Part shown: one piece after another, positions 16,908 through 47,435 of the stretch
Numbering within the stretch: the stretch's first letter is position 1
How the letters are laid out: every line of letters begins with the position of its first letter
From: Candidatus Blackallbacteria bacterium
GTDB taxonomy: Bacteria > Cyanobacteriota > Sericytochromatia > UBA7694
Assembly (NCBI GenBank): GCA_051715345.1
Contig: JBPXJQ010000003.1
Coordinates: 1,261 to 65,260, forward strand
DNA: 64,000 nt
Reading direction: 5' to 3'
The notes under the pieces: model-generated
The model's input: the letters and a program-made list of their open reading frames with translations, nothing else
Told to the model about the DNA's origin: nothing
Databases searched by the model: none
Made by a program: the position numbers and the translations under genes

Positions 16908-18469
16908 GTTCTTTTCGGTGCGGGCGTCAGGGTTTTTAACAATTCCTGCAGAGCCGGTGCATCTGCTGCCGCAGGGTTCTGCTGCAAATACAGTTTAAGT
17001 GCGCTGCGGGCCTTGTCTTTTTGCCCCTGTTTGAGCCAAGCCAGCCCCAGGTATTTTGAGAGTTCACGCTGGCCGGGAGCCAGTTTTTGGGCCTGTTCGA
17101 GCCAGGCAATGGCCTGTGCCGCTTGGCCCTGCTGAGAGGCCAAGATGCCCGCCACAATCAAGGTTTGAGTATCACGGGGATGGGTTTTGAGATAACTTTC
17201 CAGGTATTTCAGGGCCTCTCCCGCACGGCCCTGACGGGAAAGCCAAAAGGCAGCTTCGGGCAAGGCCTCTTGAGGCGGAGGCGCAATCGCAAAAGCCTGG
17301 GCAAAAAAGGACTCAGCTTTGGATTTTTGACCATTTAAATGCGCCAATTTGCCCAATAAGTGCAAAACTGAGGCGTTGACAGGTTCAGCCTCCGCCAAAG
17401 GTGCCAATAAATCCCAGGCCTCAGCACGGTGATTCAGTTTCAATTCCCAATGCACCAATTGCAAACGGGCCGATTCATCTTCGGGCCGAAAACGCAAATA
17501 ATCGCGCAGAAGCACCACCAATTGGGCGCCTTGATTTTGTGCTGTGAGTACCTGCAAAAGCAATCCTCGCGCGGAATCATGCTCTGGACGCAACCAGAGT
17601 ACATGGTACAAATCCGCTTCAGCCCCGACCAGATTTTTGGCTCGGATCGCCAAACGGGCGCGTTCATAATAAGCTGCGGCATGGTTGGGATCTTGTTGAA
17701 TGACTTGGTTTAAATCGTCCAGGGCCCCCCGCCAATTTTGAGCTGCCAAATAGATGCGGGCCCGGCGAAAGGCCGCAGCGGCACAACTGGGATGGGCCTT
17801 TAATAATTGGCTATAGGCGCCCAAGGCTGCCGCTGTCTTCCCCTGTTCTTCAAGGGCCACTGCCTGCCGATAGCCACTCAAGGCAACAGCCGGCTCAAAC
17901 CCAGGAGAAACAGCCGGAGGCAAGGCTTGCAGTTTTTTTTCCAGAGCGGGCTCACGTTTGAGTGCAAGGGCCCGTTGCCAGGCTGCACGGGCGGCATCTG
18001 GCGCTGAAGCAGGAGAGTCAAGCTGGCTTTGTATCAGCTCCAATTGACCCAAATTGAACCACAACTCGCGCGCCAAGGGACGGGTAAGCAAAGCCTGGGT
18101 GTACAAGCTGCGCGCAGCCGCCAGGTCTTCGAGTTGTATAAATGCCAAACCAAGATGGTTGAGGGCAAAGAGATGATCGGGAGCGAGTTCTAAGGCCTTT
18201 TGCAAATGGCTGAGGGCCAAAACAGCATCACCACTGAGCAGCGCAGCGCTGCCGACCTGATAGTGCAGTTCAGCACTGCCAGGATTGTCTGCCAAAAGTG
18301 GCAAATAAAGGGCCAAGGCTTGGGAATAGGCCTTGGCTTGGAAAGCCGCCTGAGCCTGCTCTGCCAAAGTAAGGTCTGCGGCAAAGACAGGCAGACTCAG
18401 TGCCGCACAGGCCAAAAGACCTGTGAACATTGTTTTGAAGGGTGTGTAAAGCTGCTTGATTTTAAACAT
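16904..18469 (-). CDS. Secreted TPR-repeat protein
   Basis: AAGGAG lies 5 nt upstream of ATG 18469, which is preferred over the ORF-track start 18511. Signal peptide MFKIKQLYTPFKTMFTGLLACAALSLPVFA. TPR-like Ala/Leu-rich repeats throughout. Confidence 0.8.
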   Translation of the reverse strand: MFKIKQLYTPFKTMFTGLLACAALSLPVFAADLTLAEQAQAAFQAKAYSQALALYLPLLADNPGSAELHYQVGSAALLSGDAVLALSHLQKALELAPDHLFALNHLGLAFIQLEDLAAARSLYTQALLTRPLARELWFNLGQLELIQSQLDSPASAPDAARAAWQRALALKREPALEKKLQALPPAVSPGFEPAVALSGYRQAVALEEQGKTAAALGAYSQLLKAHPSCAAAAFRRARIYLAAQNWRGALDDLNQVIQQDPNHAAAYYERARLAIRAKNLVGAEADLYHVLWLRPEHDSARGLLLQVLTAQNQGAQLVVLLRDYLRFRPEDESARLQLVHWELKLNHRAEAWDLLAPLAEAEPVNASVLHLLGKLAHLNGQKSKAESFFAQAFAIAPPPQEALPEAAFWLSRQGRAGEALKYLESYLKTHPRDTQTLIVAGILASQQGQAAQAIAWLEQAQKLAPGQRELSKYLGLAWLKQGQKDKARSALKLYLQQNPAAADAPALQELLKTLTPAPKRT

Positions 18470-18594
18470 AGTTTCTCCTTGCAGTTTAACGGTCAGTAAC
18501 ACATCAGGCAACCAGACATTGGCATTTCGCTAGGCATTTCGCTGCGAGATTGATATGATCGAGCTGTCTCAAATCAATTCAATCCTGCGGAGCA

Positions 18595-19563
18595 ATGGCT
18601 ATGTTTGGCCCATTTTACCAGACCCTGGCGGCAGACAAACTCCAGCCCTGGCTGCAACACCTGCCCGCCCGTCTGGCCCAGTGGGAGCGTGACCTGAGCC
18701 GCTCACAACAACAAAATTATCTGCAGGTGCCCAGCGCCTTGCCCCCCATCAGTCCATCAGAATTGGAACTCAAGCAAACTCTGCGTGTCGGGCTGCCCCA
18801 AGACCTGGCACCCGGCCAAGAAAAAATGCTCTTGCAACTCCTGCAACGCCTCAAACCCTGGCGCAAAGGTCCGTTAAACCTCTTCGGGATCGAAATCGAA
18901 ACAGAGTGGCGTTCGGATTGGAAATGGGACAGAATTGTGCCGCATATTTCGCCCTTGGCGGACCGCCGGGTTTTGGACGTGGGCTGCGGCAATGGCTATT
19001 ATCTCTGGCGCATGCGCGGCGAAGGCGCCGCTTGTGTGATCGGGATTGACCCCATGGTGATCTTTTTGGCCCAGTTCCTCTGTTGTCAGCATTTTATTCA
19101 AGATCCAGCCGTACATGTATTGCCCTTGGGGGTGGATGATCTGCCCTCTCTGCCCCTCTTTGACACGGTTTTTTCGCTGGGTGTGCTCTACCACCGCCGC
19201 TCGCCCATTGATTTTTTAACACAACTACACAGCCAATTGCGGCCCGGCGGCGAACTCGTGCTCGAAACCCTGGTGGTCGAAGGCGATGAGCAAACCGTGC
19301 TGGTGCCTCAAGACCGCTATGCCCAGATGCGCAATGTCTGGTTTATTCCCTCGGTGGCCGCATTACAACGCTGGTTAGAGCGGGTTGGGTTTACAGAGAT
19401 CGCGCTGGTCAACTTAAACACCACCTCATTAGACGAGCAACGGCGGACGGCCTGGATGGAATGGGAATCCCTGGCAGATTTCCTCGATCCAAATGACCGC
19501 AGCAAAACCGTGGAAGGTTATCCAGCACCCCTGCGGGCCGTGTTGGTAGCTCAAAAAGCCTAA
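18595..19563 (+). CDS. cmoB: tRNA U34 carboxymethyltransferase CmoB
   Basis: LKPWRKGPLNLFGIEIETEWRSDWKWDRI signature, SAM-binding VLDVGCGNGYY, and 322-aa length typical of CmoB. Confidence 0.8.
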   Translation: MAMFGPFYQTLAADKLQPWLQHLPARLAQWERDLSRSQQQNYLQVPSALPPISPSELELKQTLRVGLPQDLAPGQEKMLLQLLQRLKPWRKGPLNLFGIEIETEWRSDWKWDRIVPHISPLADRRVLDVGCGNGYYLWRMRGEGAACVIGIDPMVIFLAQFLCCQHFIQDPAVHVLPLGVDDLPSLPLFDTVFSLGVLYHRRSPIDFLTQLHSQLRPGGELVLETLVVEGDEQTVLVPQDRYAQMRNVWFIPSVAALQRWLERVGFTEIALVNLNTTSLDEQRRTAWMEWESLADFLDPNDRSKTVEGYPAPLRAVLVAQKA

Positions 19564-21035: not shown

Positions 21036-21575
21036 ATGACCATGACACAGCGTGAGTCCGACCTCAAACAGGCCCTGTTACAACTGCGCCCGGGCATGAT
21101 CCGCCAGGTAACGATCCGGACGGGCTCACGCGATCTGGCCGAAGAGGTGGTACAAGTGGCCTTGCTCAAAGCCCTTGAAGGGTTGGACCGCTTAAAAGAT
21201 CCTCGCCGCCTGAAAAGTTGGTTTGGCACGATTGTGCAACACAGCCTGCAAGACGAATTCCGACAGTGGTCGCGACAGGCCCCTTTAGAGCAGGCCGAAA
21301 GTCTGCCCGATTTACAGGCTGAAGAAAAAGCCGAGCCACCGCTGAGCTGTGGCTGCGTCTTGAAATTATTGCCCACTCTGCGACCGGCTTACGCTCAATT
21401 ATTGGAAGCGGTGGATCTGCGCGGCGACTCGCTGCAGAAATTGGCCCAAAACTGGGGGCTGAGCCCCAACAATCTGTCGGTGCGCTTGCACCGTGCCCGC
21501 CAGGCCCTGCGCAAAAAATTGGGTCAGCGCTGTGGCACACACTCTGTGGCCGCTTGCCTGGAATGCGGCTGTTAA
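21036..21575 (+). CDS. ECF sigma factor with C-terminal Cys-rich extension (CorE-like)
   Basis: 179 aa. Sigma-2 and sigma-4 regions (DLAEEVVQVALLKALEGL; LSPNNLSVRLHRARQALRKKL). A CxC (SCGCV) sits between the regions, and the C-terminal tail is QRCGTHSVAACLECGC. No anti-sigma gene is adjacent. Confidence 0.75.
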   Translation: MTMTQRESDLKQALLQLRPGMIRQVTIRTGSRDLAEEVVQVALLKALEGLDRLKDPRRLKSWFGTIVQHSLQDEFRQWSRQAPLEQAESLPDLQAEEKAEPPLSCGCVLKLLPTLRPAYAQLLEAVDLRGDSLQKLAQNWGLSPNNLSVRLHRARQALRKKLGQRCGTHSVAACLECGC

Positions 21576-21682
21576 AAACCCGACTCTCTCTGTTTTCAAA
21601 AAAGCAAGATCCTGGTTTAAAATTGGGATAGACTGACAAGGACCTTCAGGTTCAAATTTAAGATCAGTGGCAGGCGACATTT

Positions 21683-22870
21683 ATGAGTCCCGGATTGACA
21701 TTTGAAAAAGAGATCTCGTTGCGTGGCGACAATAAAACCTATAAAAAGGTGGCCCTCAATCTCAAACGCAATCAGCAGCAGGACAATACCGATGCCTTGG
21801 ACTCACTGGCAGAGACTTTTAATTACAGTGAGTGTGCCCACGAATACTGGAACCCCGAAGAATTCTCGCTGCTCTACGGCACGCCGCTCTGGGATCAGGC
21901 CACCCAAGCCCAACGTGTGCTGCTCAACCAACTCTATTGGATTGGCTATTATTCCCAGATCATCTCTGCTGAAATTGCCACGATCTTTTTGAACCAGACT
22001 GCTGCAGCCGGCCTCTATGGCATGGAAGACTTTCGCATTGTCTGCGACTCACTCGACTTTGAATCCCACCAAGAGCGGGCACATATCAACGCCTTTAAGA
22101 CGATCTCCGAAGCCACCGAGCGTGAAGTCTTTGGTGAGCGGATTTTCAGTTACCCGATGAAAAATTTCGCCAGCGAGACCATGATTTTCCAAGACACAAA
22201 TCCCTTTCGCGAGCGCTGGAAAAAATTTCAATTGCACTTTTTCGCCTTTCTCTCTTCTTCAAATGCCTTTATTGCCAGTCAATACCTCACAGTGCGGGGC
22301 ATGCGCACCCTGAATGGTAAAATAGTCCAGCATCAGCTCAGCCAGTATTACGAAAAACATGCAGATCAGGCCAACGCGCCGATACCAGCCAAGATCAGCT
22401 ACCATCACTTTTTGGATGAGTCCTATCACTTCAACAATTCCACCCTGATTGGTCATGAAGTGGTCAAAAGCCTCAAGCCCCCCACCCCGTTTGAGAAAAA
22501 GATCGTCAATATGTCGATCTGGGGCTGCCAAAAAGATCACTTTAATTTTAATTGCTCAGTCAATGGCATCTTCTGGTACGAACCCGCGATTTTTGGCACG
22601 ATCTACAAGGTGCTGCGCAGCCGGGCCTTTGGCTTTGAACACCAGGCCGCCCTGGATATGATTGATAAGTGCTTTTGCCAGGAAAACGAAGGCGTGAATC
22701 TGGCTTACAAGACCCACAAAGTGGCCCGGGAGTCCTATGAACAATACCTGAGTGATCTGGACTTCCTCAGCCCCGAAAACAAAAGCGTGAAATTGATGAA
22801 GCAGTCCAGCATTGAGCATTATCTGCAAACCAATCGCCGGGCCTTCCAAAGCTTTAAACCGGCCGCCTAA
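21683..22870 (+). CDS. AurF-like ferritin-fold diiron oxygenase
   Basis: 395 aa. Two E-x-x-H motifs in helical context (ESHQERAHINAF and LDESYHFNNS). The overall resemblance to the p-aminobenzoate N-oxygenase (AurF) family was judged by eye. Confidence 0.6.
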   Translation: MSPGLTFEKEISLRGDNKTYKKVALNLKRNQQQDNTDALDSLAETFNYSECAHEYWNPEEFSLLYGTPLWDQATQAQRVLLNQLYWIGYYSQIISAEIATIFLNQTAAAGLYGMEDFRIVCDSLDFESHQERAHINAFKTISEATEREVFGERIFSYPMKNFASETMIFQDTNPFRERWKKFQLHFFAFLSSSNAFIASQYLTVRGMRTLNGKIVQHQLSQYYEKHADQANAPIPAKISYHHFLDESYHFNNSTLIGHEVVKSLKPPTPFEKKIVNMSIWGCQKDHFNFNCSVNGIFWYEPAIFGTIYKVLRSRAFGFEHQAALDMIDKCFCQENEGVNLAYKTHKVARESYEQYLSDLDFLSPENKSVKLMKQSSIEHYLQTNRRAFQSFKPAA

Positions 22871-22907
22871 CAAAGAGCCACTGAGAAAAATAGGCGAAAC
22901 AAACACG

Positions 22908-23198
22908 ATGCAACGGCACCGGCTGGAATTTTCGAATGGCACAGCGATTGACGTCAACGCGGGAGAGAAGCTCTCGGAGTCGCTTGATGTCACCAACTCG
23001 CCGATCTTATTTGGCTGTCGCACAGGTATTTGCGCCACCTGTTTGGTGCAGGTATTGGCAGGCATGGAAAACCTCTCGCCCCTGAGCGAAGACGAAGAAG
23101 AGGTGCTTGAGATCTACGCCGAGGACCGCCCCAATTGCCGATTGTCCTGCCAACTCAGGCTCTCAGGCCCTGCCAAACTGGCGTATATCGGAAAATAA
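22908..23198 (+). CDS. Plant-type 2Fe-2S ferredoxin
   Basis: 96 aa from ATG 22908. C-x4-C-x2-C (CRTGICATC) plus a distal Cys (NCRLSCQL). Confidence 0.8.
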   Translation: MQRHRLEFSNGTAIDVNAGEKLSESLDVTNSPILFGCRTGICATCLVQVLAGMENLSPLSEDEEEVLEIYAEDRPNCRLSCQLRLSGPAKLAYIGK

Positions 23199-23209
23199 GA
23201 GGCCGTTTT

Positions 23210-24334
23210 ATGCACGCTCCCGAAAAAATGATTCCCGAACAGCTTGAGCTCGGCGCTCAGGGCGAGCAGCAGTTGCCCATGCAGGCGCCCATGCAGGCCC
23301 CCACCCAACCCGTCTCGTTTAAACACTATTGGTATATTGCCTGCCAGACCCATGAACTCAAAGCCAACCAAGCGATACAGCGCACGGTGATGGATGAATG
23401 GATTGCCTTATTTCGGGACGAAAATGGCCAGCCTGTTGCTTTACAGGATCGCTGTCCGCACCGCAATTTTAAACTCTCCCAGGGCTATGTCAAAGACGGC
23501 CTCTTGCAATGCCCGTATCATGGCTGGGTCTTTGATAAAACAGCCCAGGTTGTGGCCATTCCCTCTGAGAGCAAAAATTTTAAACCGCTCAAATCCCGCT
23601 GTGCCAAACGTTTTGAGGTCATGGAGATCGATGATTTTATCTTTGTGCGCCTCGAAAGCCACCCCGAACTCCAGGCCCCGCCCTTTCGCTCCCCCCATTA
23701 TGGCGAAAAGGGCTACCGCACGGAACGCCTGTTTAATATCTTTAAAAACAATGTCACCAATTGTGCCGAAAACTATGTCGATGTGCCGCACACGGTCTTT
23801 GTCCACGACAAGATCTTTCGCGTCAGCCGCGATGAAAAAGTCGACGCCACTGTCGAGCGTAAAAACGGCAGCGTGATTGTCGATTACCGCAATGAAACCG
23901 ACAATATGGGCTGGTTCTCGCTCTTTCTCAACCCCAAAAAAGAAAAAATAGTCCACCGCGACTTTTTCCATGTTCCCAATATCACCAGCGTGGAGTATAT
24001 TTTTTCGCCCGGCAAAGAATTTTATATCACCTCCCACAGCACGCCAGTGAATGACCAATTGACCTATGTTTACACCGATTTGACCTACCGCTTTGGCATC
24101 TTTAATCCCTTTGCAGGCCCGATTGTGCGCTATCAAGGCCAAAGCGTGATCGACCAAGACATTGTCGTTTTAGACACCCAAATGGAAGTCATTCAAAAAT
24201 ACGGCGAGCGCTTCTCCAATGCCACTGCGGATATTGTGCATGTGATGATCGAATCTCTGCGCAACGCCATTGCCAAAGGCCAGAATCCCCACACCCTGAG
24301 CGAGCAAAAACACGATTTTGAATTTTGGATCTAG
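23210..24334 (+). CDS. Rieske 2Fe-2S non-heme-iron oxygenase (PaO/Tic55-like)
   Basis: Rieske motif CPHRNFKLSQGYVKDGLLQCPYH. Mononuclear iron motif ENYVDVPHTVFVH (E-N-x2-D-x2-H-x4-H). ATG 23210 lies 11 nt after the ferredoxin stop. Confidence 0.85.
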   Translation: MHAPEKMIPEQLELGAQGEQQLPMQAPMQAPTQPVSFKHYWYIACQTHELKANQAIQRTVMDEWIALFRDENGQPVALQDRCPHRNFKLSQGYVKDGLLQCPYHGWVFDKTAQVVAIPSESKNFKPLKSRCAKRFEVMEIDDFIFVRLESHPELQAPPFRSPHYGEKGYRTERLFNIFKNNVTNCAENYVDVPHTVFVHDKIFRVSRDEKVDATVERKNGSVIVDYRNETDNMGWFSLFLNPKKEKIVHRDFFHVPNITSVEYIFSPGKEFYITSHSTPVNDQLTYVYTDLTYRFGIFNPFAGPIVRYQGQSVIDQDIVVLDTQMEVIQKYGERFSNATADIVHVMIESLRNAIAKGQNPHTLSEQKHDFEFWI

Positions 24335-24337
24335 ACC

Positions 24338-25078
24338 ATGCTTGAACTGCTGGTCTTTTGGCTGCTCTTTGTCTGGTTGCTGCGCTCGCCCCAGGCCCGC
24401 CAGGACTTAAAAAACAAAACGCCTTTTGAGTGGCTGCTCGACGGCAGCAATTTATTGATCCAGGGCTTTTTAATTCCTTTTTTGCGGGTGGCTGTCCTTT
24501 GGGTGCTGCTCAAACAGGTTTGGCCCGCTGGCCAGGGCCTCTGGCGCATGGGCAATGGGCTGGGATTTTTGCTCTGTTTTATCGGCGTGGACTATCTCTA
24601 TTATTGGAACCACCGCATTTTTCACCTGCGTAAGATCTTTCCCGTACACCTGATTCACCACAGCGTAACCCGTATGGACGTGATGGCGACCTCGCGCAAC
24701 ACCCTTTGGACCAGCTTTGTGATCGTCTATCTCTGGGTCAATGGCCTGATGCTCTACCTGACAGATCTCAATGCTGGGTTTATACTGGCCATGAGCCTGA
24801 CCGCCTGTTTGGACATGTGGAAACATTCCAACCTGCTCCAAGAACGCCCCCAATGGCAAGCCCTGCTGTCTAAATATCTGGGTTTAATGACGCCCCTGGA
24901 ACACGCTTGGCACCACTCCCACAAACTGAATCAAAACTTCGGCGCCAATTTTAACCTCTTTGATAAATTACACGGCACCTATACCGCCGAAAGCGCTTAT
25001 CCCGAGCGCCTGGGCGTGAGTGTGGCCAAGCTCAAACCCTGGCAACAATTGTTCTTTCCCTTTCAGGCCCGCCCATGA
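24338..25078 (+). CDS. Fatty-acid hydroxylase / sterol desaturase superfamily membrane di-iron enzyme
   Basis: His boxes HRIFH, HLIHH and HAWHHSH in a polytopic membrane protein. The start is 3 nt after the Rieske stop. Confidence 0.8.
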   Translation: MLELLVFWLLFVWLLRSPQARQDLKNKTPFEWLLDGSNLLIQGFLIPFLRVAVLWVLLKQVWPAGQGLWRMGNGLGFLLCFIGVDYLYYWNHRIFHLRKIFPVHLIHHSVTRMDVMATSRNTLWTSFVIVYLWVNGLMLYLTDLNAGFILAMSLTACLDMWKHSNLLQERPQWQALLSKYLGLMTPLEHAWHHSHKLNQNFGANFNLFDKLHGTYTAESAYPERLGVSVAKLKPWQQLFFPFQARP

Positions 25079-25761
25079 CCTTGCTCTCGACCCTGCTCTC
25101 CTTTTTTCCGCTTTCGGTGCTGCTGCTGGCGGGTGGGGCTTTTTATTACCTGCTTGTATCTCCGAGTTGGCAGGGAATCGTGGCCCTGCTCGGGGTGCTC
25201 TATCTTTACCCTGTGGCGGTCTTTCGTCTGATCAACCTCTTTTGGCCGCTCAAAGAAGGGCGCTATGACCTGCGCCAAAACAAATACAATCCCTGGTGGG
25301 GCAGCCACCAAATCCAATTGATCTACTTTGCCTGCCCCTGGCTGGAGGCCTTGCTGCGCCTGATTCCTGGCGTTTACAGTTTTTGGCTGCGGCTCTGGGG
25401 CGCAAAAATTGGCAAAGGCATTTACTGGACTCCGAACGTGCAAATTGATGACCGGCCGCTGACAGACATCGGCAGCGGCGTGATTATTGGGCACAAATTG
25501 CATTTTATCAGCCACGTGATTCTGCCCTACAAAGACAAATTGCCGCTGTACGTCAAACGCATCAGTGTGGGGGATCATTGCTTTTTGGGGGCGGGCTCTC
25601 GGCTGGGACCCGGCGTGGTGGTCGAAAACAGCACCTGCCTACCGATTCTGACCGAAGGAAAAATCAACCAACACTTTGCAACGGGCAATTATATTACGGG
25701 CCCAAACACAGCCCAAAACACAGTCCAAAACACAGGCAAAAACACGGAAAATCCGGCGTGA
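25075..25761 (+). CDS. Membrane protein with left-handed beta-helix (hexapeptide) domain, resembling the C-terminal TM/LbH modules of Pls-type synthetases
   Basis: Two N-terminal TM helices. WLRLWGAKIGKGIYW, then hexapeptide-like IGSGVIIGHKLHF and ISVGDHCFLGAGSRLGPGVVVENS. ATGA overlap with the upstream gene. Confidence 0.6.
   Translation: MTLLSTLLSFFPLSVLLLAGGAFYYLLVSPSWQGIVALLGVLYLYPVAVFRLINLFWPLKEGRYDLRQNKYNPWWGSHQIQLIYFACPWLEALLRLIPGVYSFWLRLWGAKIGKGIYWTPNVQIDDRPLTDIGSGVIIGHKLHFISHVILPYKDKLPLYVKRISVGDHCFLGAGSRLGPGVVVENSTCLPILTEGKINQHFATGNYITGPNTAQNTVQNTGKNTENPA
25700..25747 (+). repeat. Four tandem copies of a roughly 12-nt unit (CCAAAACACAG-like) at the 3' end of the LbH gene
   Basis: cccaaacacag / cccaaaacacag / tccaaaacacag / gcaaaaacacgg. 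It encodes PNTA-QNTV-QNTG-KNTE. Confidence 0.8.
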
Positions 25762-27299
25762 GAGGCTTGCTTTTAAAGGCCTTTCGGCTGGCCACAGCAC
25801 CTATTTGGAAACGTTTTGAGGCCGATTTACACCAGCCCTTGAAAGCCCAAATGCGTACCCTGAGTGCCATTCTCAAATTGGCCAACACAGCCGGAATAGA
25901 GACCTACGCAGATTTTCAGCAACTCCCTTTGCGCAGCTACGAAGAGTTCGAAGCCCAGATCTTAAAGGCCGAACAAACAGGGCACAACTTTCTCAGCCGT
26001 GAAAAACCCAAGACCCACGAACCGACCAGTGGCTCCAGTGGCGCCCGCAAATTGATACCCTATACCCCGGCGCTCTTAAACGGGTTTACCCAACTCTTTT
26101 TACTCTGGGCCCACGATCTGCTCAGCCACGGGCCACACCTCAAGGGCGGACGCCTCTACTTTAGTGTCTCGCCCCAGTTTCACGAAACCAAGCACGGCCT
26201 CAATGACGACAGTGATTACCTGACAGGCCTAACAGGTCAGCTGTTTAAAGCCTTTGTGCTGGTGCCCCCCCAAATCAAAAAGCTGAAAAACCCCGATGAT
26301 TTTTTTTATGTGCTGGCGCGTTATTGGCTGGGAGCTGACGATCTGGAAGTGATCTCGATTTGGTCGCCCAGTTTTATGCTGGCCATCTTGGACTATATTC
26401 AAAGCCATGCTTCAGCCCTGATCGCCTCGGGCCAGACAGGCCAAATTCAGATCGCAGGCCAGAGCTTTACACCGGGTGCAATTTCGGCCGCTAAACAGGC
26501 CGAATTACAAAAGCCCCAGCCCAATTGGCAAAAACTCTTTCCGGGCCTCAAGCTGATCTCTGCTTGGGGGGCCCAGAATTCAGCCACGGGGTTTCAGCAA
26601 TTAAAGACCCTGTTCCCAGATGTACATCTGCAAGAAAAAGGCCTGCTCGCCACCGAAGCCCCTTTGAGTTTCCCCTCTGAGCGCCACCAGGCCTTTTTGC
26701 CGCTTTTAAACGAAGTTTTCTTTGAATTCCTCGATGCCGAAGGCCAATTATGGCAACTGGATCAGGTGGCTGTTGGCGAGAGCTATGAATTGCTGATCAG
26801 CCAAAAATCGGGGCTGCTGCGTTACCGGCTCAAAGACCGTGTCAGAATTGAGAAAAAGGTCTTCAACACCCCCTGTTTTCAGTTTATCGGCAGGGGTGAA
26901 AATCTCTGCGATCTTGTCGGCGAAAAGCTCAACGAGACCTTTGTGGCAGAGCTGGCCAAGCAGCTCTGCCCGGGCAATTATCTCTGCCTTGTGCCCGATT
27001 TGGCCACACGGGGGTATACCCTTTTTTCGGAGCAAACCGTAGATTTGGAGCGCTTTGAACAGGGCCTAAGACAATCGCCCCATTACCACAATGCCCGCGA
27101 ACTCAAGCAATTATCGCCGCTGCAGGGGCAAATCACCCCAGATCTGCAAACCCGGCTCAAGGCCTTTTTTAGCCAAGTCAGAGGTCTGAAGCTGGGAGAT
27201 ATCAAAGACAGCTATCTTTACAGCCGCGAAACCAACGGGGAACTCTTGGCCTATTTAATTTTGGCAGTTTTAAGCCCCGTGGTCGTTTCAGAGACTTAA
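25758..27299 (+). CDS. GH3-family acyl-acid amido synthetase (adenylate-forming)
   Basis: GTG 25758 overlaps the upstream TGA (GTGA). It is the only plausible start, because the next in-frame ATG would truncate the conserved N-terminus. Adenylation motif EPTSGSSGARKLIPYT. About 510-aa length and overall pattern typical of bacterial GH3 proteins. Confidence 0.7.
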   Translation: MRGLLLKAFRLATAPIWKRFEADLHQPLKAQMRTLSAILKLANTAGIETYADFQQLPLRSYEEFEAQILKAEQTGHNFLSREKPKTHEPTSGSSGARKLIPYTPALLNGFTQLFLLWAHDLLSHGPHLKGGRLYFSVSPQFHETKHGLNDDSDYLTGLTGQLFKAFVLVPPQIKKLKNPDDFFYVLARYWLGADDLEVISIWSPSFMLAILDYIQSHASALIASGQTGQIQIAGQSFTPGAISAAKQAELQKPQPNWQKLFPGLKLISAWGAQNSATGFQQLKTLFPDVHLQEKGLLATEAPLSFPSERHQAFLPLLNEVFFEFLDAEGQLWQLDQVAVGESYELLISQKSGLLRYRLKDRVRIEKKVFNTPCFQFIGRGENLCDLVGEKLNETFVAELAKQLCPGNYLCLVPDLATRGYTLFSEQTVDLERFEQGLRQSPHYHNARELKQLSPLQGQITPDLQTRLKAFFSQVRGLKLGDIKDSYLYSRETNGELLAYLILAVLSPVVVSET

Positions 27300-28621
27300 A
27301 GGCGGGGCACCTGGGCAGCCAGACAATGCCAAGTGCCACCATACGTGACCAGATGATCAGCGTTGGCCCAGATCGGCTGATAACCGGCCTCGCGATACAG
27401 GGCTTCGACCTGCAGTTCATAATTGGCAAGCAAGTCTGCATCGGGATAATCATGCACACCATCATCTAAAAAAAGCCTTTCAAAACGGGGCAAAATCACT
27501 TTTCCATTGATCAAGAGAGAGTTGACATAAGAGCGAAAAAAGCTGATCTCATTCAGAACCATCGGCAAAGGCAGAGGAATGCGCTTAATTTTCACATCGG
27601 GATCCCAGGTTTTGAGTTGGGTCGCCAAGGTATCGGAAAGGGTTTTCCCGGCTGAATCCCGGCCCGTGGCCTGCTGATTGAGAAAGACTTGCAATTGCAG
27701 ATAAAAATCCCGCGACTCAGGCGGTACCAGCGCCAGCGTCTCGGGCAGAATTTCAGCGATCAGCAAAAGGTCGTCGCTGAGAAATTTGGCCCAGAGATCC
27801 ATATGGCCGTTGGGCTCTTTTGGCATCTTCGGCACCATCAAAAGACGTTGACTGAAGCGGCGCTTAAAATCTGCGTAGATGGCATTCATACCTTGGGGGT
27901 TCTGCTCAGCCACTTTGGCAGAGACAAAACAGAGATGGTCATTGCAGAGCAGGTTGCCGCCTTCTAAAATCAGAGGCAACTCTGATTTGAGCAGCGCGAT
28001 CTGTTTGGGCAGCAAACGCTGCTGTTTGAGTTCAAATTTAAGTTGGGCAGGCACAGCATCGTCATTGCTCACATCGGCATCGGATCGGTGGTAGTGGGGA
28101 TCAACCAATTTGAGCTCTTTGCTTCCCCCCAGAGTGCGAGCAGCAAACAAAGGTGCCCAATCACGGGTCCAAGCTGAGATGGTCTGGACATGCAAAGGTG
28201 TTAAATATTTCAACTTGTCTTTTGCTGACCCGAGTTCCAGATTATCGCGATACATTTCAAAATCCTGATTTTGCCCAGAGAGCAACCAAACCGGAATATC
28301 TGCTTTGAGCAGGGTCGAAACCAGATTTTTATCGCCGTGGTGTTTGTGCAAATTTTCAGAGACCAGAACTGCCGTGGTGGTTTCATATTCAGGCACCATG
28401 CGGTAGCGCAGCAGGGGCTTTTTTAAATTGACATCGTCCAAACAATCCTGAAAACGTGGCATTGCACGGGTCAAAAAAACACGTCCTTTGATACAGGGGT
28501 TGTCGGTTTGTTTGGGGGGAATGGTTTTCCCGCGCAGTCCCCCGCAGGCCGAAAGAAACCCACAACAAAAAAACAAAATAAAAAAGAAACGTATTTTGTC
28601 AGCCGTCATTTTCACAATCAC
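27296..28621 (-). CDS. Lipoprotein of the agmatine deiminase / Porphyromonas-type peptidyl-arginine deiminase family
   Basis: Lipobox FLSAC. Family motifs WTRDWAPLF, LEGGNLL, NGHMDLWAKF, SYVNSLLINGKVILPRF. C-terminal catalytic GGTWHC. Confidence 0.75.
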   Translation of the reverse strand: MIVKMTADKIRFFFILFFCCGFLSACGGLRGKTIPPKQTDNPCIKGRVFLTRAMPRFQDCLDDVNLKKPLLRYRMVPEYETTTAVLVSENLHKHHGDKNLVSTLLKADIPVWLLSGQNQDFEMYRDNLELGSAKDKLKYLTPLHVQTISAWTRDWAPLFAARTLGGSKELKLVDPHYHRSDADVSNDDAVPAQLKFELKQQRLLPKQIALLKSELPLILEGGNLLCNDHLCFVSAKVAEQNPQGMNAIYADFKRRFSQRLLMVPKMPKEPNGHMDLWAKFLSDDLLLIAEILPETLALVPPESRDFYLQLQVFLNQQATGRDSAGKTLSDTLATQLKTWDPDVKIKRIPLPLPMVLNEISFFRSYVNSLLINGKVILPRFERLFLDDGVHDYPDADLLANYELQVEALYREAGYQPIWANADHLVTYGGTWHCLAAQVPRL

Positions 28622-30464: not shown

Positions 30465-32915
30465 TCAGAAGTGGTAGCCCGTACCAAAGGTCACCCCATG
30501 GTAAATCTGACTGGCCTCAGAGCCCAGGTCAAACATCATCAGGCCCTGGTAGCCCAGATTGAGCGAGATCTTACTCTGGCCCAAATTGATCATATCCCAG
30601 TTGATCAGGAAATTAATCTGGGTATCCCAGCGGCTGAGTGGCAGTCCCGACAATTGGATATTGGAGAGATCCTGCATGACATAATGGGGGGCGAGACTGA
30701 GCTCCAACGAAAGGGGCTCGATGATCCGATAGCCCATGTGCAGACGCAGGCCGGCACCAATATACGAACGGGCCGCCAAGAAATAGTGATTACGCGGATC
30801 GTTGCTGCTGCTGGTGCTGCGGTAATAGCCATCGAGCCCGGTTGCCAGTTCAAACTGGGGCGTAGCCACCACTTTGTACAAAACAGCCAAGTTGGCATTG
30901 ATCAATTCACTCAAGGTGCCATTTTGGCTGGTGACATTGCTGGTATAGTCAAAGCCACTCAAAGAGCTGAGATCCAATGCAACCCCAAGTTTGCCCAAGG
31001 CAGTAGTGGGCTCGCCAAACCAGATCAGGGTATTCAAGTGGGCTGATATGCCCGCACTGCCACTGACCGTTTGCTCTGCATCGTTCATTTTGAGCCCCTC
31101 TTTGACAGAGGTTGGAACGCGCTCATCGTAGATCAGCTTATACGTGCCCAGCAGCATCAAGCGATTGCGCAACGGGGGAGGCATCACATTGGCAGCAGCA
31201 GCAGAGGGCAAAGGTGTCGGGCTCGCTTTGGCCACCTGATTGGGACTGGCCGTGGGCAGGGGAATATTAACCAAACTGTCGGGATCAGCTGGTTTGAGTG
31301 TCGGAACAGCGGAAGGGGCCGCAGTACTGGCTCCTGGCGAGGGGCTGGCACTGAGACTGCGCAATTGGTTTTCCAAATCACTCAGACTCAAATCACCGCT
31401 GCTGGGAGAGGCTTTAGGCAAAGGAACCGGTGTAGGCATGGGCTGTGCAACCGAAGGTTTGGCTGTCGGCAGTGGCGAAACAGGTTTTTGGCTGGCCACA
31501 GGGGTGGGCTTGCCGCTCGGTTTGGCCGTCGGCTTGGCTGTTGGCTTGGCTGTCGGTTTAGTGCTGGGTTTGGGCGTGGGTTTGATCTGCGGTGGCTTGG
31601 CCGTCAATTTGGGCGAGGGCAACACAGAAGGTTTGGCACTCAAGCTCGGGCTGGGCACCACAGGCGGTTTGGTCGAGGCCGTCGGAGGGTTAAACAGGGC
31701 ATTCAAGGCATCCATATCTGCACTGCCACTGGGTTTGGGTGTAACAGGTGCGCCCGAAGGTTTGGGGGTCGCAGGCACAGCGGTAGGCTTGGCCGTCGGT
31801 TTGGCGGTTGGGGAAGGCTTGGGAGTTGCAGGGGCCTTACTGGGCTGCGCACAATCACTCAGCAGGGCTTCCAACTCGCTCAAAGAGCCATCGCCACATT
31901 TATTCGCGCCAGAGGCCTGGGGCTTGGCCGTTGGTTTTGCCGTCGGCTTCGCGGTCGGTTTGGCCGTGGGCACAGGTTTGGGTGTTGCGGTCGGCACAGG
32001 GCGAGCAGTTGGAACGGGGGTGGGTTTGGACGAGGGCGCAACCGAGGGTTTGCTGGTCGGCGGCGTGCCCGAGGGCGTACCCGAAGCACAGGTGCCAGAG
32101 AGCAGGCATTCGATTTGACTGAGATTGTCTCCCGAAGAGCCGGTCGGCGGGGTGCTGGTGGGAGGAAGCCCTGTTGGGGGCGTGATCGTGGGGGGAGTGC
32201 CTGTTGGCGGCAGCGAGCCCAGGGAATCTTCAATCGGAGGCTGAGGACGGGGCTGTGAGAGCGCTGCTTTGACATCTTCGTAGAGCAAACCCGCAGCTTT
32301 GGCCGCCATGATCAGGGTTTCGTAGCGGGTAATTTTATTCTTGCCTTTGAAACTGCCACCTGGGTAGCCATTGGTTAATTGCCAAGTATTGGTAATTCTG
32401 TCGATCATTTGCTCATGATCTTTGTCGACATCTTTGAGCGAGATTTTTTTGTCTCGGGGCATGGGAGGAGAGGCAGGCATAAAGGTCAGTAATCGATTCA
32501 TACTGTCGGCAAATTCATAGCGAGAGACAGGACGCAGACCTTCAAATAAACCACTGTCCATGGTCATTAAATCAGCTTGAACAACCCGATTGATGTATTT
32601 ATACTCTTTGCTGTCAGGTGAAACATCGGAAATAATCAGAATGGTGACATTGGGAATTTGTTTGCTGCCCATCATGCGGTCAAGCAATTCGGCAAATTGA
32701 AAGCGCGTCAGAGGCAAATCCCCAGCAAAGCGATCATAAGACACACCCTGCATGAATTTTTTATCATACATGACCTTGGCTTCGAGCGAGGCCCAGTGTT
32801 TATAATCCACATCGGTATAGGGTAAACCTTCGGCAAAGGCCCCCATCACCAGAGTAAAGACCAAGAACCAAGCCAAATACACCCGGAAGATCGACTGTCT
32901 GAAAATAGCGCTCAC
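30465..32915 (-). CDS. SLH-domain / Pro-Thr-Lys-rich linker / C-terminal beta-barrel outer-membrane tether protein
   Basis: Signal peptide. N-terminal SLH-like repeats (PYTDVDYKHWASLEA, RYEFADSMNRLL, TRYETLIMAAKA). Low-complexity linker of about 350 aa. C-terminal beta-barrel ending GVTFGTGYHF. Confidence 0.8.
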   Translation of the reverse strand: MSAIFRQSIFRVYLAWFLVFTLVMGAFAEGLPYTDVDYKHWASLEAKVMYDKKFMQGVSYDRFAGDLPLTRFQFAELLDRMMGSKQIPNVTILIISDVSPDSKEYKYINRVVQADLMTMDSGLFEGLRPVSRYEFADSMNRLLTFMPASPPMPRDKKISLKDVDKDHEQMIDRITNTWQLTNGYPGGSFKGKNKITRYETLIMAAKAAGLLYEDVKAALSQPRPQPPIEDSLGSLPPTGTPPTITPPTGLPPTSTPPTGSSGDNLSQIECLLSGTCASGTPSGTPPTSKPSVAPSSKPTPVPTARPVPTATPKPVPTAKPTAKPTAKPTAKPQASGANKCGDGSLSELEALLSDCAQPSKAPATPKPSPTAKPTAKPTAVPATPKPSGAPVTPKPSGSADMDALNALFNPPTASTKPPVVPSPSLSAKPSVLPSPKLTAKPPQIKPTPKPSTKPTAKPTAKPTAKPSGKPTPVASQKPVSPLPTAKPSVAQPMPTPVPLPKASPSSGDLSLSDLENQLRSLSASPSPGASTAAPSAVPTLKPADPDSLVNIPLPTASPNQVAKASPTPLPSAAAANVMPPPLRNRLMLLGTYKLIYDERVPTSVKEGLKMNDAEQTVSGSAGISAHLNTLIWFGEPTTALGKLGVALDLSSLSGFDYTSNVTSQNGTLSELINANLAVLYKVVATPQFELATGLDGYYRSTSSSNDPRNHYFLAARSYIGAGLRLHMGYRIIEPLSLELSLAPHYVMQDLSNIQLSGLPLSRWDTQINFLINWDMINLGQSKISLNLGYQGLMMFDLGSEASQIYHGVTFGTGYHF
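31521..31580 (-). repeat. Tandem 12-nt repeats encoding (KPTA)n in the SLH-porin linker
   Basis: Five consecutive 12-nt units on the plus strand (tttggccgtcgg, cttggctgttgg, cttggctgtcgg and so on). Similar arrays lie near 31786-31810 and 31920-31975. Confidence 0.85.
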
Positions 32916-33550: not shown

Positions 33551-33727
33551 AACTGAGTGGGGATCCCAAAATAATTGCAGAAATGGGAGCGTGTACAGAA
33601 AAGCAGCCAAAGCCTTACTTTATGAGCCTCAAGAAGTAAAAAAGATCGCCGAGAAAGGGCTTCTAGATCTTTTCTTAACAAAAACTTAGCCAAAAATTAG
33701 AAAGAAATCCCGATCAGCAGCCTATAG

Positions 33728-33733
33728 TATAAT
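33728..33733 (+). promoter_or_regulatory. Candidate -10 box (perfect TATAAT) for the peptidoglycan-binding repeat protein gene
   Basis: TATAAT at 33728-33733, 32 nt upstream of ATG 33765 and upstream of the AGGAAGG RBS (33753-33759). No convincing -35 element at 17-nt spacing. Confidence 0.3.
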
Positions 33734-33764
33734 GAAGATCAGCTATAGCGCAAGGAAGGTTATC

Positions 33765-36017: not shown

Positions 36018-36030
36018 GTAAAGGAAGTCC

Positions 36031-36067
36031 ACAAGCTCCAGGTTGCAAGCCTGGAGCTTGTGTTTTA
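36031..36067 (+). terminator. Hairpin terminator/attenuator between the repeat protein and the SpoIID gene
   Basis: 12-bp perfect stem ACAAGCTCCAGG (36031-36042) / CCTGGAGCTTGT (36050-36061), followed by GTTTTA. Confidence 0.6.
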
Positions 36068-36072
36068 AGCCC

Positions 36073-41697: not shown

Positions 41698-41770
<73 letters not shown>

Positions 41771-41861
41771 CTTTTTTTAGTAATCGTTTCTCAGCATCTG
41801 TATTCCAGATTTCAATTCAAATAGCCGGTCAAACCGGTCCTTCACGGAGTTATCCAAGCCC

Positions 41862-47430: not shown

Positions 47431-47435
47431 ATGAC

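Follow-up and report, generated by a model that had tools for sequence, protein, structure and literature searches.

A ten-family module of iron oxygenases and acyl-transfer enzymes in a Sericytochromatia genome is a new instance of a catalogued orphan cluster

Two earlier surveys describe the cluster type to which the locus reported here belongs: it appears as 'cluster f', the fed6 cluster, in Cassier-Chauvat and Chauvat 2014 (PMC4284462) and as the 'Rieske-containing' class of CylC-homologue BGCs in Eusebio et al. 2021 (PMC8406957), and neither description assigns it a product. All characterised CylC-family enzymes act on fatty acyl chains (PMC8406957; PMC12101540), and Eusebio et al. independently proposed carrier-protein-free action on central fatty-acid intermediates (PMC8406957). 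What might such a cluster make? We analysed a 64,000-nucleotide stretch of DNA (the window) from a Candidatus Sericytochromatia MAG, in which the original prediction had singled out a six-gene cassette as a combination it did not recognise from any described system, a view that the two surveys overturn.

Gene layout and conservation

ORF analysis places six plus-strand genes, g1 to g6, at 21683-27299; the first four are spaced by 37, 11 and 3 nt, and the last two junctions are 4-nt overlaps (ATGA and GTGA), exactly as originally claimed. Orthologue alignments begin at points that back the GTG start of g6 and, for g2 and g3, the internal starts. No convincing plus-strand terminator was found inside the cassette, and a promoter-like site (TTCAAA-17-TAAAAT; 21595-21623, plus strand) about 60 nt 5' of g1 is weak evidence, coming from a consensus scan only. 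Directly upstream of g1, a SigZ-like ECF-type sigma factor gene (21036-21575, plus strand; Sigma70_r2 and r4_2 domains) is conserved in no relatives other than L004, L005 and L007, which are 98-99% identical, and, from its position alone, is possibly a lineage-specific regulator of the module. The large ORFs of the window contain no PKS, NRPS or terpene cyclase domain, in line with the original prediction.

The neighbourhood comparison proposed for the six-gene order drew on 30 independent loci, each with 7 kb or more flanking a g1 homologue (54-85% identity) on both sides. All six families occur in 24 of them, and in 22 they run from 1 to 6 on a single strand, a grouping far beyond chance; g2 holds its place after g1 in 27. 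This order is seen among Cyanobacteria, Sericytochromatia and Bdellovibrionota and in one Pseudomonadales MAG; the loci include Crinalium PCC 9333, Halobacteriovorax marinus, Nostocales, Pseudobdellovibrionaceae and many metagenome contigs.

The six genes hold together as one conserved functional unit, but they are the larger part of a module of about ten genes. Most other genomes place four additional families directly beside the cassette, namely a GNAT-fold acyltransferase, two more Rieske enzymes and another ferritin-like diiron protein; at least nine of the ten families are present in 22 of the 30 loci, and the ten-family set is conserved across phyla. In our genome these four families sit 18 kb away, leaving the module split between 21.7-27.3 kb and 45.4-49.5 kb; because L020, at 85% g1 identity, is the closest relative whose module is uninterrupted, we regard the split as recent. 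Block order varies by lineage (4-1-2-3-5-6; 6-5 / 1-2-3-4; 1-B-2-...) while the blocks remain together, which argues for selection on co-localisation. Recurrent accessories across 63 loci are an SDR (19/63), an Amidohydro_3 hydrolase (18/63), a member of the Mpo1-like 2-hydroxy-fatty-acid dioxygenase family, a membrane GT2 and an HpnN/MMPL-type lipid exporter. The window has its own Mpo1-like (DUF962) gene at 49637-50146 on the plus strand (PF06127, 62.1 bits against a cut-off of 24), divergent from the last gene of the second block, h4. It is probably an accessory member of the module: about six other module loci have a divergent Mpo1-like gene, the Calothrix NIES-22 cluster opens with a DUF962 gene, and P0047, on a contig of 2.7x coverage, is an Mpo1-like::CylC-like fusion.

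Enzymes of the module

Five of the six original family calls stand, the exception being g1 (21683-22870, plus strand; 395 aa), which had been called AurF-like. It is a CylC-like ferritin-fold diiron protein: its Pfam AurF score of 22.1 falls below the 29.6 cut-off, and its homologues carry PF28091 ('CylC-like'). Judged by sequence, g1 belongs to this dimetal-carboxylate halogenase family, within a Rieske-associated clade. The Pfam matches of g2, g3, g4 and g6 exceed curated cut-offs, so that the proposed profile searches succeed for Fer2, Rieske, FA_hydroxylase and GH3 and fall short for AurF, Hexapep and TIGR02353.

The ferredoxin g2 (22908-23198, plus strand; 96 aa) is of the [2Fe-2S] type, with the motif CRTGICATC and a Fer2 score of 41.7 bits, and is the counterpart of Synechocystis Fed6 (ssl2559), a link given by Table S4 of Eusebio et al. 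(PMC8406957) and by 'cluster f' (PMC4284462). Next comes g3 (23210-24334, plus strand; 374 aa), an alpha3-type Rieske non-heme-iron monooxygenase (Rieske C) with CPH-X17-CPYH (CPH..CPYH), DVPHTVFVH and ENYVDVPHTVFVH. Its 'PaO-type' label found no confirmation: the only domain matches are to Rieske (88.5 bits) and VanA_C (30.4 bits), and among solved structures DdmC, SxtT and NdmA, all alpha3 monooxygenases, come closest; its Synechocystis counterpart is sll1297, 'pobA'. The membrane His-box diiron hydroxylase/desaturase g4 (24338-25078, plus strand; 246 aa) combines hydrophobic segments with the three boxes HRIFH/HLIHH/HAWHH, belongs to the FA_hydroxylase or 'sterol desaturase' family (FA_hydroxylase 78.9 bits) and corresponds to sll1510.

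The last two genes encode acyl-transfer and ligation enzymes. The product of g5 (25075-25761, plus strand; 228 aa), the counterpart of sll1511, is a LacA/Maa/WcaF-like left-handed beta-helix (LbH) acyltransferase anchored in the membrane, with hydrophobic helices at its N-terminus. Its Hexapep score is 22.5 against a cut-off of 27 and its TIGR02353 score (Pls/PosA C-terminal domain) 29.5 against 423; the family profile matches galactoside and maltose O-acetyltransferases (E = 1e-8), and H147, D126 and R127 are invariant. The GH3-family adenylating acyl-acid amido synthetase g6 (25758-27299, plus strand; 513 aa; GH3 90.1 and GH3_M 57.4 bits) carries the motif TSGSSGARKLIPYT; its family profile matches JAR1 and GH3.x structures across the N- and C-terminal parts (E = 3e-26), with T90 S91 G92 S93 ... 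K98 and R355 Y356 ... D360 invariant.

The second block opens with h1, Rieske monooxygenase A (45473-46615, plus strand; Rieske 85.8 bits; CPH..CFFH, DAHHFTSVHH), the counterpart of sll0264, which adjoins the cassette in 25 of the 30 loci. Its longest ORF runs from 45389, with ATG 45473 the probable start, since orthologue alignments begin at residue 29. Overlapping its end by 4 nt is h2 (46612-47430, plus strand), the counterpart of sll0263, a family of 3186 homologues with no match in Pfam or NCBIfam; its AF2 model (pLDDT 89) matches AAC(2')-Ia, NatD and other GNATs in Foldseek (E = 1e-6), pointing to a GNAT-fold acyltransferase. The second soluble ferritin-like diiron protein, h3 (47427-48320, plus strand, starting at TTG 47427 or ATG 47436), scores 28.0 bits for Ferritin_2 against a cut-off of 24.7, is the counterpart of sll0265 and keeps E86, E116xxH119, E163 and E193xxH196 invariant; the nearest folds to its AF2 model (pLDDT 95.6), PaaA-like, AurF, aldehyde-deformylating oxygenase and RNR-R2, all match weakly (E >= 0.016). 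Convergent with it lies h4, Rieske monooxygenase B (48338-49504, minus strand; Rieske 80.1 bits; CPH..CFFH, DPQHLRTVH), found in 20 of the 30 well-flanked loci.

Proposed function and its alternatives

Oxidative tailoring of a lipid-like substrate followed by GH3-type amide conjugation, as first suggested, is still the most economical reading. We propose, with a probability of roughly 0.45, that the ferredoxin-fed oxygenases and the acyl-transfer and ligation enzymes convert a fatty-acyl lipid of primary metabolism into an oxidised amide-linked lipid; gene content, family membership and the cross-phylum conservation of the ten families are shown, and what we infer is the kind of substrate, the sequence of reactions and the end product. 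One [2Fe-2S] ferredoxin could supply all six O2-activating iron enzymes, namely three alpha3-type Rieske monooxygenases, two soluble ferritin-like diiron proteins (one CylC-like) and the membrane His-box hydroxylase/desaturase, which would hydroxylate, desaturate or possibly chlorinate unactivated C-H bonds. The LbH O-acyltransferase and the GNAT-fold N-acyltransferase would then acylate the new hydroxyl and amino functions, and the ligase, GH3, would adenylate a carboxylate and join it to an amine or amino acid, giving a product of the aminolipid or lipoamino-acid type.

The module contains no scaffold synthase, acyl-AMP ligase or carrier protein, and the most likely substrate is therefore a fatty-acyl-derived lipid from primary metabolism, met at the membrane. 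FA_hydroxylase-family membrane enzymes act on membrane lipids. The family of g4, the fatty-acyl chemistry of the CylC family, the membrane anchor of g5, the recurrent SDR, Mpo1-like, GT2 and HpnN/MMPL-type accessory genes and the proposal of Eusebio et al. all argue for a lipid; amide and ester chemistry is suggested by the GH3 profile match, the GNAT fold of h2, the LacA/Maa-like g5 and the recurrent Amidohydro_3 hydrolase. Against this reading, matches to characterised lipid enzymes lie far under family cut-offs (OlsE, the nearest NCBIfam model for g4, 55 bits against 475; SdmA 65-85 against 600), Pfam and NCBIfam profiles reveal no similarity of h2 to OlsB or N-acyl-amino-acid synthase families, and the folds it matches best belong to small-molecule and protein N-acetyltransferases. 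Nor do we know of aminolipids of this type reported from cyanobacteria, or of any aminolipid pathway that uses as many as six oxygenases.

Could g1 instead be a true halogenase at the heart of a dedicated natural-product cluster? Its substrate would be a fatty acyl chain, free or lipid-bound, and the chlorination would be a last decorating step or a cryptic activation for later C-O, C-N or C-C bond formation (compare CylC/CylK and BrtJ/BrtB), and the remaining enzymes would elaborate a halogenated specialised metabolite. Membership of PF28091 favours this, as do the ExxQExxH and HxxDExxH motifs by which dimetal-carboxylate halogenases are recognised and told from AurF (invariant in the g1 clade as E97, E127xxQ130E131xxH134 and H242xxD245E246xxH249), the identity in g1 of eight of nine residues shown essential in NocO, and the placement of such clusters among CylC-homologue BGCs by Eusebio et al. 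We nevertheless consider it unlikely. The g1 clade is the sister group to all characterised halogenases, has an invariant glutamine (Q216) where those have the equivalent of NocO E252, lacks the ~45-aa insertion of FAAL/ACP-linked CylC homologues and never adjoins a FAAL or ACP gene; furthermore, a ten-gene core spread over heterotrophic predators, non-photosynthetic Sericytochromatia and Gammaproteobacteria resembles a housekeeping lipid function more than strain-specific secondary metabolism.

That the module tailors an isoprenoid, polycyclic or long-chain (a hopanoid, say, or a sterol-like or carotenoid-like lipid), seems distinctly doubtful. Here the Rieske and His-box enzymes would oxidise methyl groups stepwise to a carboxylate (compare SdmA/SdmB and ERG25), the SDR would handle a keto or hydroxy intermediate and GH3 would join the new acid to an amino acid, which would account for the source of its carboxylate. 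SdmA, a 4beta-methylsterol monooxygenase, tops the NCBIfam matches of all three Rieske proteins, g4 falls in the 'sterol desaturase' family, and the SDR, the HpnN-like MMPL transporter, a GT2 weakly similar to HpnI/HpnB and, at one locus, a bile-acid:sodium symporter family gene would be fitting accessories. The SdmA scores, however, are about one tenth of the cut-off and lie mostly over the generic Rieske domain, generic SDR models outscore every lipid-specific one, none of about 60 neighbourhoods holds a cyclase or isoprenoid gene, the known CylC-family chemistry concerns fatty acyl chains, and the Mpo1-like accessory suggests 2-hydroxy fatty acids.

A catabolic or detoxifying module, in which alpha3 enzymes likened to VanA, DdmC, NdmA and GbcA would O- or N-demethylate or hydroxylate an exogenous aromatic, quaternary-amine or amide compound and the amidohydrolase and acyltransferases would process the fragments, is very improbable, for although dicamba O-demethylase and methylxanthine N-demethylases are the closest solved relatives of g3, which has a VanA_C domain, and Amidohydro_3 hydrolases and, at one locus, a choline-dehydrogenase-like GMC oxidoreductase accompany the module, the GH3 ligase, which spends ATP, the pair of acyltransferases and the membrane His-box enzyme all have a biosynthetic character, transporter, regulator and ring-cleavage genes are not consistently found in the neighbourhoods, and the carriers of the module include both obligate photoautotroph lineages and predators of very different diets.

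Relation to the catalogued clusters

In Synechocystis, ssl2559-sll1297 belong to a transcription unit that is induced ~32-fold on phosphate starvation, and the induction of ssl2559 depends on PhoB (PMC4195498, PMC11126600). Such a response would fit remodelling towards a lipid that lacks phosphorus, although the signal could stem from the upstream sll1291 chemotaxis-like operon rather than from the module; the module promoters in the window show no Pho-box-like site above chance. With its Fed6-type ferredoxin, three Rieske monooxygenases and CylC-like protein, the module is a new instance of the orphan cluster, without an assigned product, already catalogued as 'cluster f' and as the 'Rieske-containing' class.

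A ten-family module and its neighbours

The observation behind the original prediction, a six-gene cassette on the + strand at 21683-27299, is correct and the reasoning built on it is largely sound, and three findings alter how it is to be viewed: the six genes make up half of a larger module, the first of them belongs to the CylC family, and the cluster type has already been catalogued. The six ORFs and their junctions were reproduced exactly in the window sequence. The CylC-like gene g1 (21683-22870) is followed after 37 nt by the [2Fe-2S] ferredoxin gene g2 (22908-23198), after 11 nt by the Rieske gene g3 (23210-24334) and after 3 nt by the FA_hydroxylase gene g4 (24338-25078), which shares an ATGA overlap with the probable LbH acyltransferase gene g5 (25075-25761); a GTGA overlap then joins g5 to the GH3 gene g6 (25758-27299), all six on the + strand. 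The motifs quoted in the prediction were all located in these proteins, and Fer2 (g2), Rieske and VanA_C (g3), FA_hydroxylase (g4), and GH3 and GH3_M (g6) score above the Pfam gathering thresholds. A promoter-like site lies about 60 nt 5' of g1, and no convincing + strand terminator was found inside the cassette.

Searches of the other window ORFs against loci that carry g1 homologues in other genomes and metagenomes revealed four genes that adjoin the cassette elsewhere. Here they lie 18 kb away from g1-g6 and encode a Rieske protein (h1 or Rieske A, 45389/45473-46615, +), a GNAT-fold protein of 272 aa (h2, 46612-47430, +), a ferritin-like protein of 297 aa (h3, 47427-48320, +) and another Rieske protein (h4 or Rieske B, 48338-49504, -). 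In a set of 30 independent loci, each extending 7 kb or more to either side of the g1 homologue, all six cassette genes co-occur at 24 and keep their order at 22, at least nine of the ten families are found at 22, and all ten at 13, statistics that rule out chance adjacency. The g1-g6 order recurs in Crinalium PCC 9333, Halobacteriovorax marinus, further Sericytochromatia, Nostocales, Sphaerospermopsis and a Pseudobdellovibrionaceae MAG. The ten-family set together with an SDR is found in a Pseudomonadales MAG and on a 3-Mb metagenome contig. In 80 further metagenome loci the ten families recur as two blocks, [1-2-3-4-5-6] and [A-N-F](B), whose placement relative to each other varies widely. 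The window set almost certainly belongs to a conserved orphan module. Its core is ten families, not six, and includes the GH3 ligase, the GNAT-fold protein and a second diiron protein; the module extends well beyond cyanobacteria and can be divided between loci.

The 18-kb split in the window is recent, because the module is contiguous in the closest relative beyond the window's species cluster (L020, g1 identity 85%). Four Candidatus Sericytochromatia MAG contigs carry genes 98-99% identical to g1, and on three of them (L004, L005 and L007) the flanking genes are collinear with those of the window. In Synechocystis the orthologues are scattered (sll0263-0265, ssl2559, sll1297, sll1510, sll1511; Eusebio et al., PMC8406957). 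Three metagenome loci with g1 homologues of about 57% identity (L060, L061, L062) have flanks of up to 10 kb on each side with none of the other nine families nearby, and may represent a dispersed layout of the Synechocystis 'PriA-containing' kind.

Accessory genes were counted over 63 loci, each with at least five core families. An SDR is present at 19 of these, an Amidohydro_3 metallohydrolase at 18, a membrane GT2 at seven, a SnoaL-like membrane protein at six, a divergent Mpo1-like/DUF962 protein at about six and an HpnN/MMPL-type transporter at three. The predicted absence of PKS, NRPS and terpene cyclase genes was borne out, as none of these domains occurs in the large window ORFs scanned; nor did the window ORFs scanned or the recurrent accessory families of the 63 loci include an acyl-AMP ligase, a carrier protein or a PKS/NRPS.

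An Mpo1-like gene (PF06127, 62 bits) adjoins h4 divergently in the window, and the Calothrix NIES-22 cluster has a DUF962 gene as its first gene (Eusebio et al., PMC8406957). The 3' end of the window's Mpo1-like gene is overlapped by a YciA-like acyl-CoA thioesterase gene (50133-50654, +), of which no homologue was found in other module loci, and a gene for a TPR and GT41 (O-GlcNAc-transferase-like) protein follows (50647-52761, +); the Mpo1-like, thioesterase and GT41 genes seem to make up a single operon that diverges from Rieske B. A database protein, P0047 (L100), is a single 562-aa ORF in which an Mpo1-like and a CylC-like part with 65% identity to g1 are fused. It comes from a 1956-bp contig at 2.7x coverage, and the fusion may be genuine or may be a frameshift artefact joining two adjacent genes.

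An ECF sigma factor gene (21036-21575) flanks the g block in the window's lineage. A gene for a PAD_porph lipoprotein-like protein of the agmatine/peptidyl-arginine deiminase family (27296-28621, -) converges on g6, with a 4-nt overlap at the g6 stop codon. The window and L005 have this gene, but it is missing from the 98-99% identical L004 and L007, and is therefore a recent indel and not a member of the system. A TRAM and tRNA/rRNA U5-methyltransferase gene (43903-45387, +) ends 1 nt before the longest Rieske A ORF, whose true start is probably 85 nt further downstream, and a CmoB-like methyltransferase gene (18595-19563) lies near the g block. Neither seems to be more than a chance neighbour: the idea of a role in tRNA modification, to which the MiaE-like annotation that some sources give h3 also belonged, was rejected because these neighbours are conserved in the closest relatives only.

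The other window genes are ordinary chromosome content, among them a FliI-type ATPase, an SLH-domain protein, Rho, a UvrD helicase and a histidine kinase. The FliI/T3SS-type ATPase gene and one for a 535-aa TPR protein that follows it lie at 15570-18511 (-), and no other flagellar or injectisome genes were found near them within the window. The SLH-domain protein (816 aa; 30465-32915, -) varies among close relatives (81-92% identity, with indels), whose versions contain extended repeats rich in Pro, Thr and Ala and probably end in a beta-barrel-like region at the C-terminus. A GC-rich stretch (0.58) with strong negative GC skew holds an ORF of about 800 codons (33714-36155, -) and one of about 760 (33732-36017, +) that lie almost entirely across from each other on the two strands, the - strand ORF having no Pfam match. 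The window also encodes a VKOR-DsbA/thioredoxin fusion protein (39316-40461, -) and a tRNA-Lys(CTT) (41698-41771) just upstream of rho. The density of large glycosyltransferase fusions is unusual: the TPR and Glyco_transf_41 protein at 50647-52761 has a paralogue less than 7 kb away (57209-59338, +), and a 1498-aa protein combines GT4, methyltransferase and TPR domains (1054-5550, -).

Iron oxygenases and acyl-transfer proteins

The prediction had called g1 AurF-like, an assignment that we reject: PF11583 scores 22.1 bits against a cut-off of 29.6, over residues 19-155 only, and the motif pattern is CylC-like, including an ExxQExxH motif that AurF lacks. PF28091, named 'CylC-like' in the neighbourhood tables, is present in 120 of the 120 g1 homologues listed, one of them 98% identical to g1, and g1 is assigned to the family through the annotation of these homologues. 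This family comprises dimetal-carboxylate halogenases and includes CylC, NocO and BrtJ, from the cylindrocyclophane, nocuolin and bartoloside pathways. Two motifs, ExxQExxH and HxxDExxH, define the halogenase family and set it apart from AurF (Wang et al. 2025; 2026 halogenase-annotation preprint). In g1 they read ESHQERAH (from residue 127) and HFLDESYH (from residue 242), and both are invariant, together with E97, across 29 clade members; g1 shares with CylC, NocO and BrtJ the family, both motifs and the first-helix Glu, and a ferritin-like diiron fold is predicted for it as well.

The differences emerged from an alignment of g1 with two canonical FAAL-ACP-PKS-linked homologues from cyanobacterial plasmids. 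Eight of the nine NocO-essential active-site residues are conserved in g1; the ninth, NocO E252, is a Glu in the canonical homologues (in 'YEY'), whereas the g1 clade has an invariant Gln216, a substitution known in a small subset of homologues (Wang et al.). The g1 clade also lacks an insertion of about 45 residues found in canonical CylC homologues, and identity between g1 and the FAAL/ACP-linked homologues is 23-31%. Genes for FAAL and ACP flank the canonical homologues (L016, L017) but were never seen beside g1-clade genes in the neighbourhoods examined; g1 has no FAAL, ACP or PKS partner, and its clade, associated with Rieske genes, is sister to all other CylC homologues, the proven halogenases among them (Eusebio et al., PMC8406957). 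Judged by its sequence, g1 is a CylC-family protein of this Rieske-associated clade, with halogenation as a possible activity. PDB sequence searches with g1, h2 and g4 returned nothing usable.

Three further oxygenases, g3, h1 and h4, each carry a CxH-X15-20-CxxH Rieske motif and a (D/E/N)xxH-X3-5-H mononuclear-iron motif, and their Rieske Pfam scores of 80-88 bits and motif content place them as predicted alpha3-type Rieske monooxygenases. The 'PaO-type' label given to g3 did not hold: only VanA_C was matched, with no PaO-domain match at E <= 0.01, which speaks against the PaO / Tic55 / PTC52 subgroup, and h1 and h4 likewise have no PaO-domain match at E <= 0.01 and match KshA_C weakly. The description of g4 as a His-box membrane enzyme stands, with HRIFH, HLIHH and HAWHH boxes, hydrophobic segments and a PF04116 score of 78.9 against a threshold of 31.

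NCBIfam offered only distant matches to the g block (OlsE, 55 vs 475; SdmA, 68 vs 600; TIGR02353, 29.5 vs 423). Thus g4 is not OlsE (NF052566; 55.5 bits against the equivalog cut-off), and SdmA, the best NCBIfam match of g3, h1 and h4, is rejected as an equivalog for scores so far under the cut-off (about 10% of it). The remaining iron enzyme, h3, passes the Ferritin_2 threshold and has an E...ExxH...E...ExxH ligand set that is invariant in 40 homologues. Its high-confidence model (pLDDT 95.6) has weak similarity to PaaA-like proteins, AurF, aldehyde-deformylating oxygenase and RNR-R2, the fold search giving only a generic ferritin-like diiron oxygenase fold with weak E-values. We take h3 to be a second soluble diiron oxygenase, in a separate subfamily.

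Among the acyl-transfer proteins, g5 scores below the Hexapep cut-off (22.5 vs 27 bits), but its family profile matches LacA/Maa O-acetyltransferases (E = 1e-8 to 1e-6), H147 is invariant in the family and the N-terminus contains membrane helices. It is not the C-terminal membrane domain of Pls/PosA: the sub-threshold TIGR02353 match spans 110 residues, and g5 is a stand-alone 228-aa protein, whereas TIGR02353 domains are terminal in NRPS; the two have no more in common than a membrane-anchored LbH unit. The identification of g6 as a GH3 protein is upheld by PF03321 (90.1 bits) and PF23571 (57.4 bits), both above threshold, and both lobes, including residues 330-512, are covered when its family profile is aligned to JAR1 and other GH3 structures (E = 3e-26). 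TSGSSGARK, R355, Y356 and D360 are invariant, and the consensus YRLGD of the family appears as YRLKD in the window protein. No Pfam or NCBIfam family matched h2, despite more than 3000 homologues, but its AF2 model (pLDDT 89) shows the GNAT fold, extended at the C-terminus, and a fold search gave 145 PDB matches at E <= 1e-3, all 50 of those listed being GNAT-type acyltransferases.

A possible lipid product

What might such a set of enzymes make? Six O2-activating iron enzymes, drawn from three mechanistic classes, are combined in the module with a single ferredoxin, a GNAT protein, a probable membrane LbH acyltransferase and a GH3 ligase; it contains no scaffold synthase or carrier protein, and its families co-localise strongly across phyla. 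We suggest that the substrate would be a lipid from primary metabolism, because lipid chains are what FA_hydroxylase enzymes and every known CylC enzyme work on, because g4 and g5 are membrane proteins, and because the accessory genes (Mpo1-like, MMPL, GT2, SDR) have a lipid character. The oxygenases would put hydroxyl, halide or double-bond functions on this substrate, the GNAT and LbH proteins would acylate amino and hydroxyl groups, and the GH3 protein would adenylate a carboxylate to form an amide. The product might then be of an aminolipid or lipoamino-acid type, in agreement with a hint from phosphate starvation. We place the probability of this reading as a whole, an oxidised, amide-linked lipid, at roughly 0.4-0.45.

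The phosphate hint comes from Synechocystis, for whose locus tags literature searches gave expression data only: ssl2559-sll1297 belong to a transcription unit raised about 32-fold in phosphate starvation, and the induction of ssl2559 is PhoB-dependent (PMC4195498, PMC11126600). The fed6 gene was called essential in 2014 (PMC4284462), which a later study contradicted by deleting it completely. A Pho-box scan of the window gave 4 matches against 2.3 expected, none of them at module promoters.

Other products deserve consideration. A halogenated specialised metabolite seems unlikely to us. Methyl oxidation of an isoprenoid or triterpenoid followed by conjugation is a weaker proposition still, and recalls bacterial sterol C4-demethylation by SdmA/SdmB: the pairing of an alpha3 Rieske protein with an SDR is found there as in about 30% of module loci, but an SDR is part of that system and the window's module has none, and no sterol or hopanoid synthesis genes lie near the module. 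Catabolism of an exogenous compound we hold to be very improbable. A siderophore, once suggested by the combination of GNAT, N-oxygenase and amide ligase, is rejected because the module needs six iron enzymes, because sll0266, which we take to be the Synechocystis CylC homologue, is repressed under iron deprivation, and because no NIS or transport genes recur in the 63 loci.

The oxidised, amide-linked lipid can be taken a step further. It is conceivable, if somewhat unlikely, that the module makes an undescribed class of membrane lipid, oxidised, possibly chlorinated and amide-linked, that is induced by phosphate limitation and common to Cyanobacteria, their non-photosynthetic sister lineages and predatory Bdellovibrionota. 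If so, the CylC-like enzyme would need no carrier protein and would take as substrate an acyl chain that is free or bound to the membrane, and g6 would be the first bacterial GH3 protein with an assigned role, since to our knowledge no bacterial member of the family has one. The full ten-gene set is what experimenters must express or delete together. Its function, once solved, would reveal the chemistry performed by a carrier-independent CylC-type enzyme, wanted as a biocatalyst for C-H functionalisation, and would establish a role for bacterial GH3 proteins and possibly a new membrane lipid tied to phosphate stress.

Comparison with known systems

Plant GH3 proteins (JAR1, GH3.5/3.6/3.12) have the N, M and C architecture, the ATP-binding TSGSSG..K loop and the YR..D motif in common with g6, but at very low identity (a single-sequence E of only about 1e-6), and g6, unlike them, is encoded alongside oxygenases and acyltransferases in an operon of a bacterium. 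The ornithine-lipid pathway (OlsB, OlsA, OlsC/D/E) is built on a logic like that of the proposed mechanism, with an N-acyltransferase, an O-acyltransferase and lipid hydroxylases; one of these hydroxylases is of the FA_hydroxylase family, OlsE being the nearest NCBIfam model to g4, and phosphate limitation induces ornithine-lipid synthesis in several bacteria. The pathways differ in that g4 falls far short of OlsE (55 vs 475), h2 matches no OlsB-type family, and the O-acyltransferase is of PlsC type there and an LbH protein (g5) here, and the Ols pathway has no counterpart of the GH3 protein, the three Rieske proteins or the two soluble diiron proteins.

The gene combination had not been recognised as a described system, but its cluster type was already catalogued, as an orphan, in papers of 2014 and 2021. 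The first reported a conserved 'cluster f' around fed6 (hypothetical; Rieske; hypothetical; hypothetical; fed6; pobA (Rieske); sterol desaturase; hypothetical; Cassier-Chauvat & Chauvat 2014, PMC4284462), and the second 'Rieske-containing' clusters of CylC homologues, the commonest CylC-homologue context in cyanobacteria (36 of 95 clusters surveyed), which have no carrier proteins and do have non-cyanobacterial members (Eusebio et al. 2021, BMC Genomics 22:633, PMC8406957). Neither paper names the GH3 ligase (0 occurrences), searches of later literature on 'Rieske-containing' clusters, CylC with GH3 and cyanobacterial GH3 with Rieske found no functional characterisation, and the literature found assigns no product to a cluster type flagged as conserved since 2014.

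Their gene set (fed6, 2-4 Rieske proteins, 'sterol desaturase', 'acyl transferase' and ferritin-like diiron protein) matches that of the window. The families of g1-g4 follow the order of CylC homologue, [2Fe-2S] ferredoxin, Rieske protein and 'sterol desaturase' given in the accounts of the Calothrix cluster and 'cluster f'; there are three Rieske proteins (g3, h1, h4), the ferritin-like h3 and the predicted acyltransferases g5 and h2, the hypothetical protein of those clusters being the GNAT-fold h2 here, and a carrier protein is missing from both. The Crinalium, Nostocales and Sphaerospermopsis clusters even keep the g1-g6 order of the window. What sets the window apart is its host, a non-photosynthetic Sericytochromatia MAG, the 18 kb that separate the two loci of its module, and the genes for an ECF sigma factor, an Mpo1-like protein and a YciA-like thioesterase that flank the two halves in this lineage. 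The window cluster is a split, non-cyanobacterial member of a known but uncharacterised cluster type.
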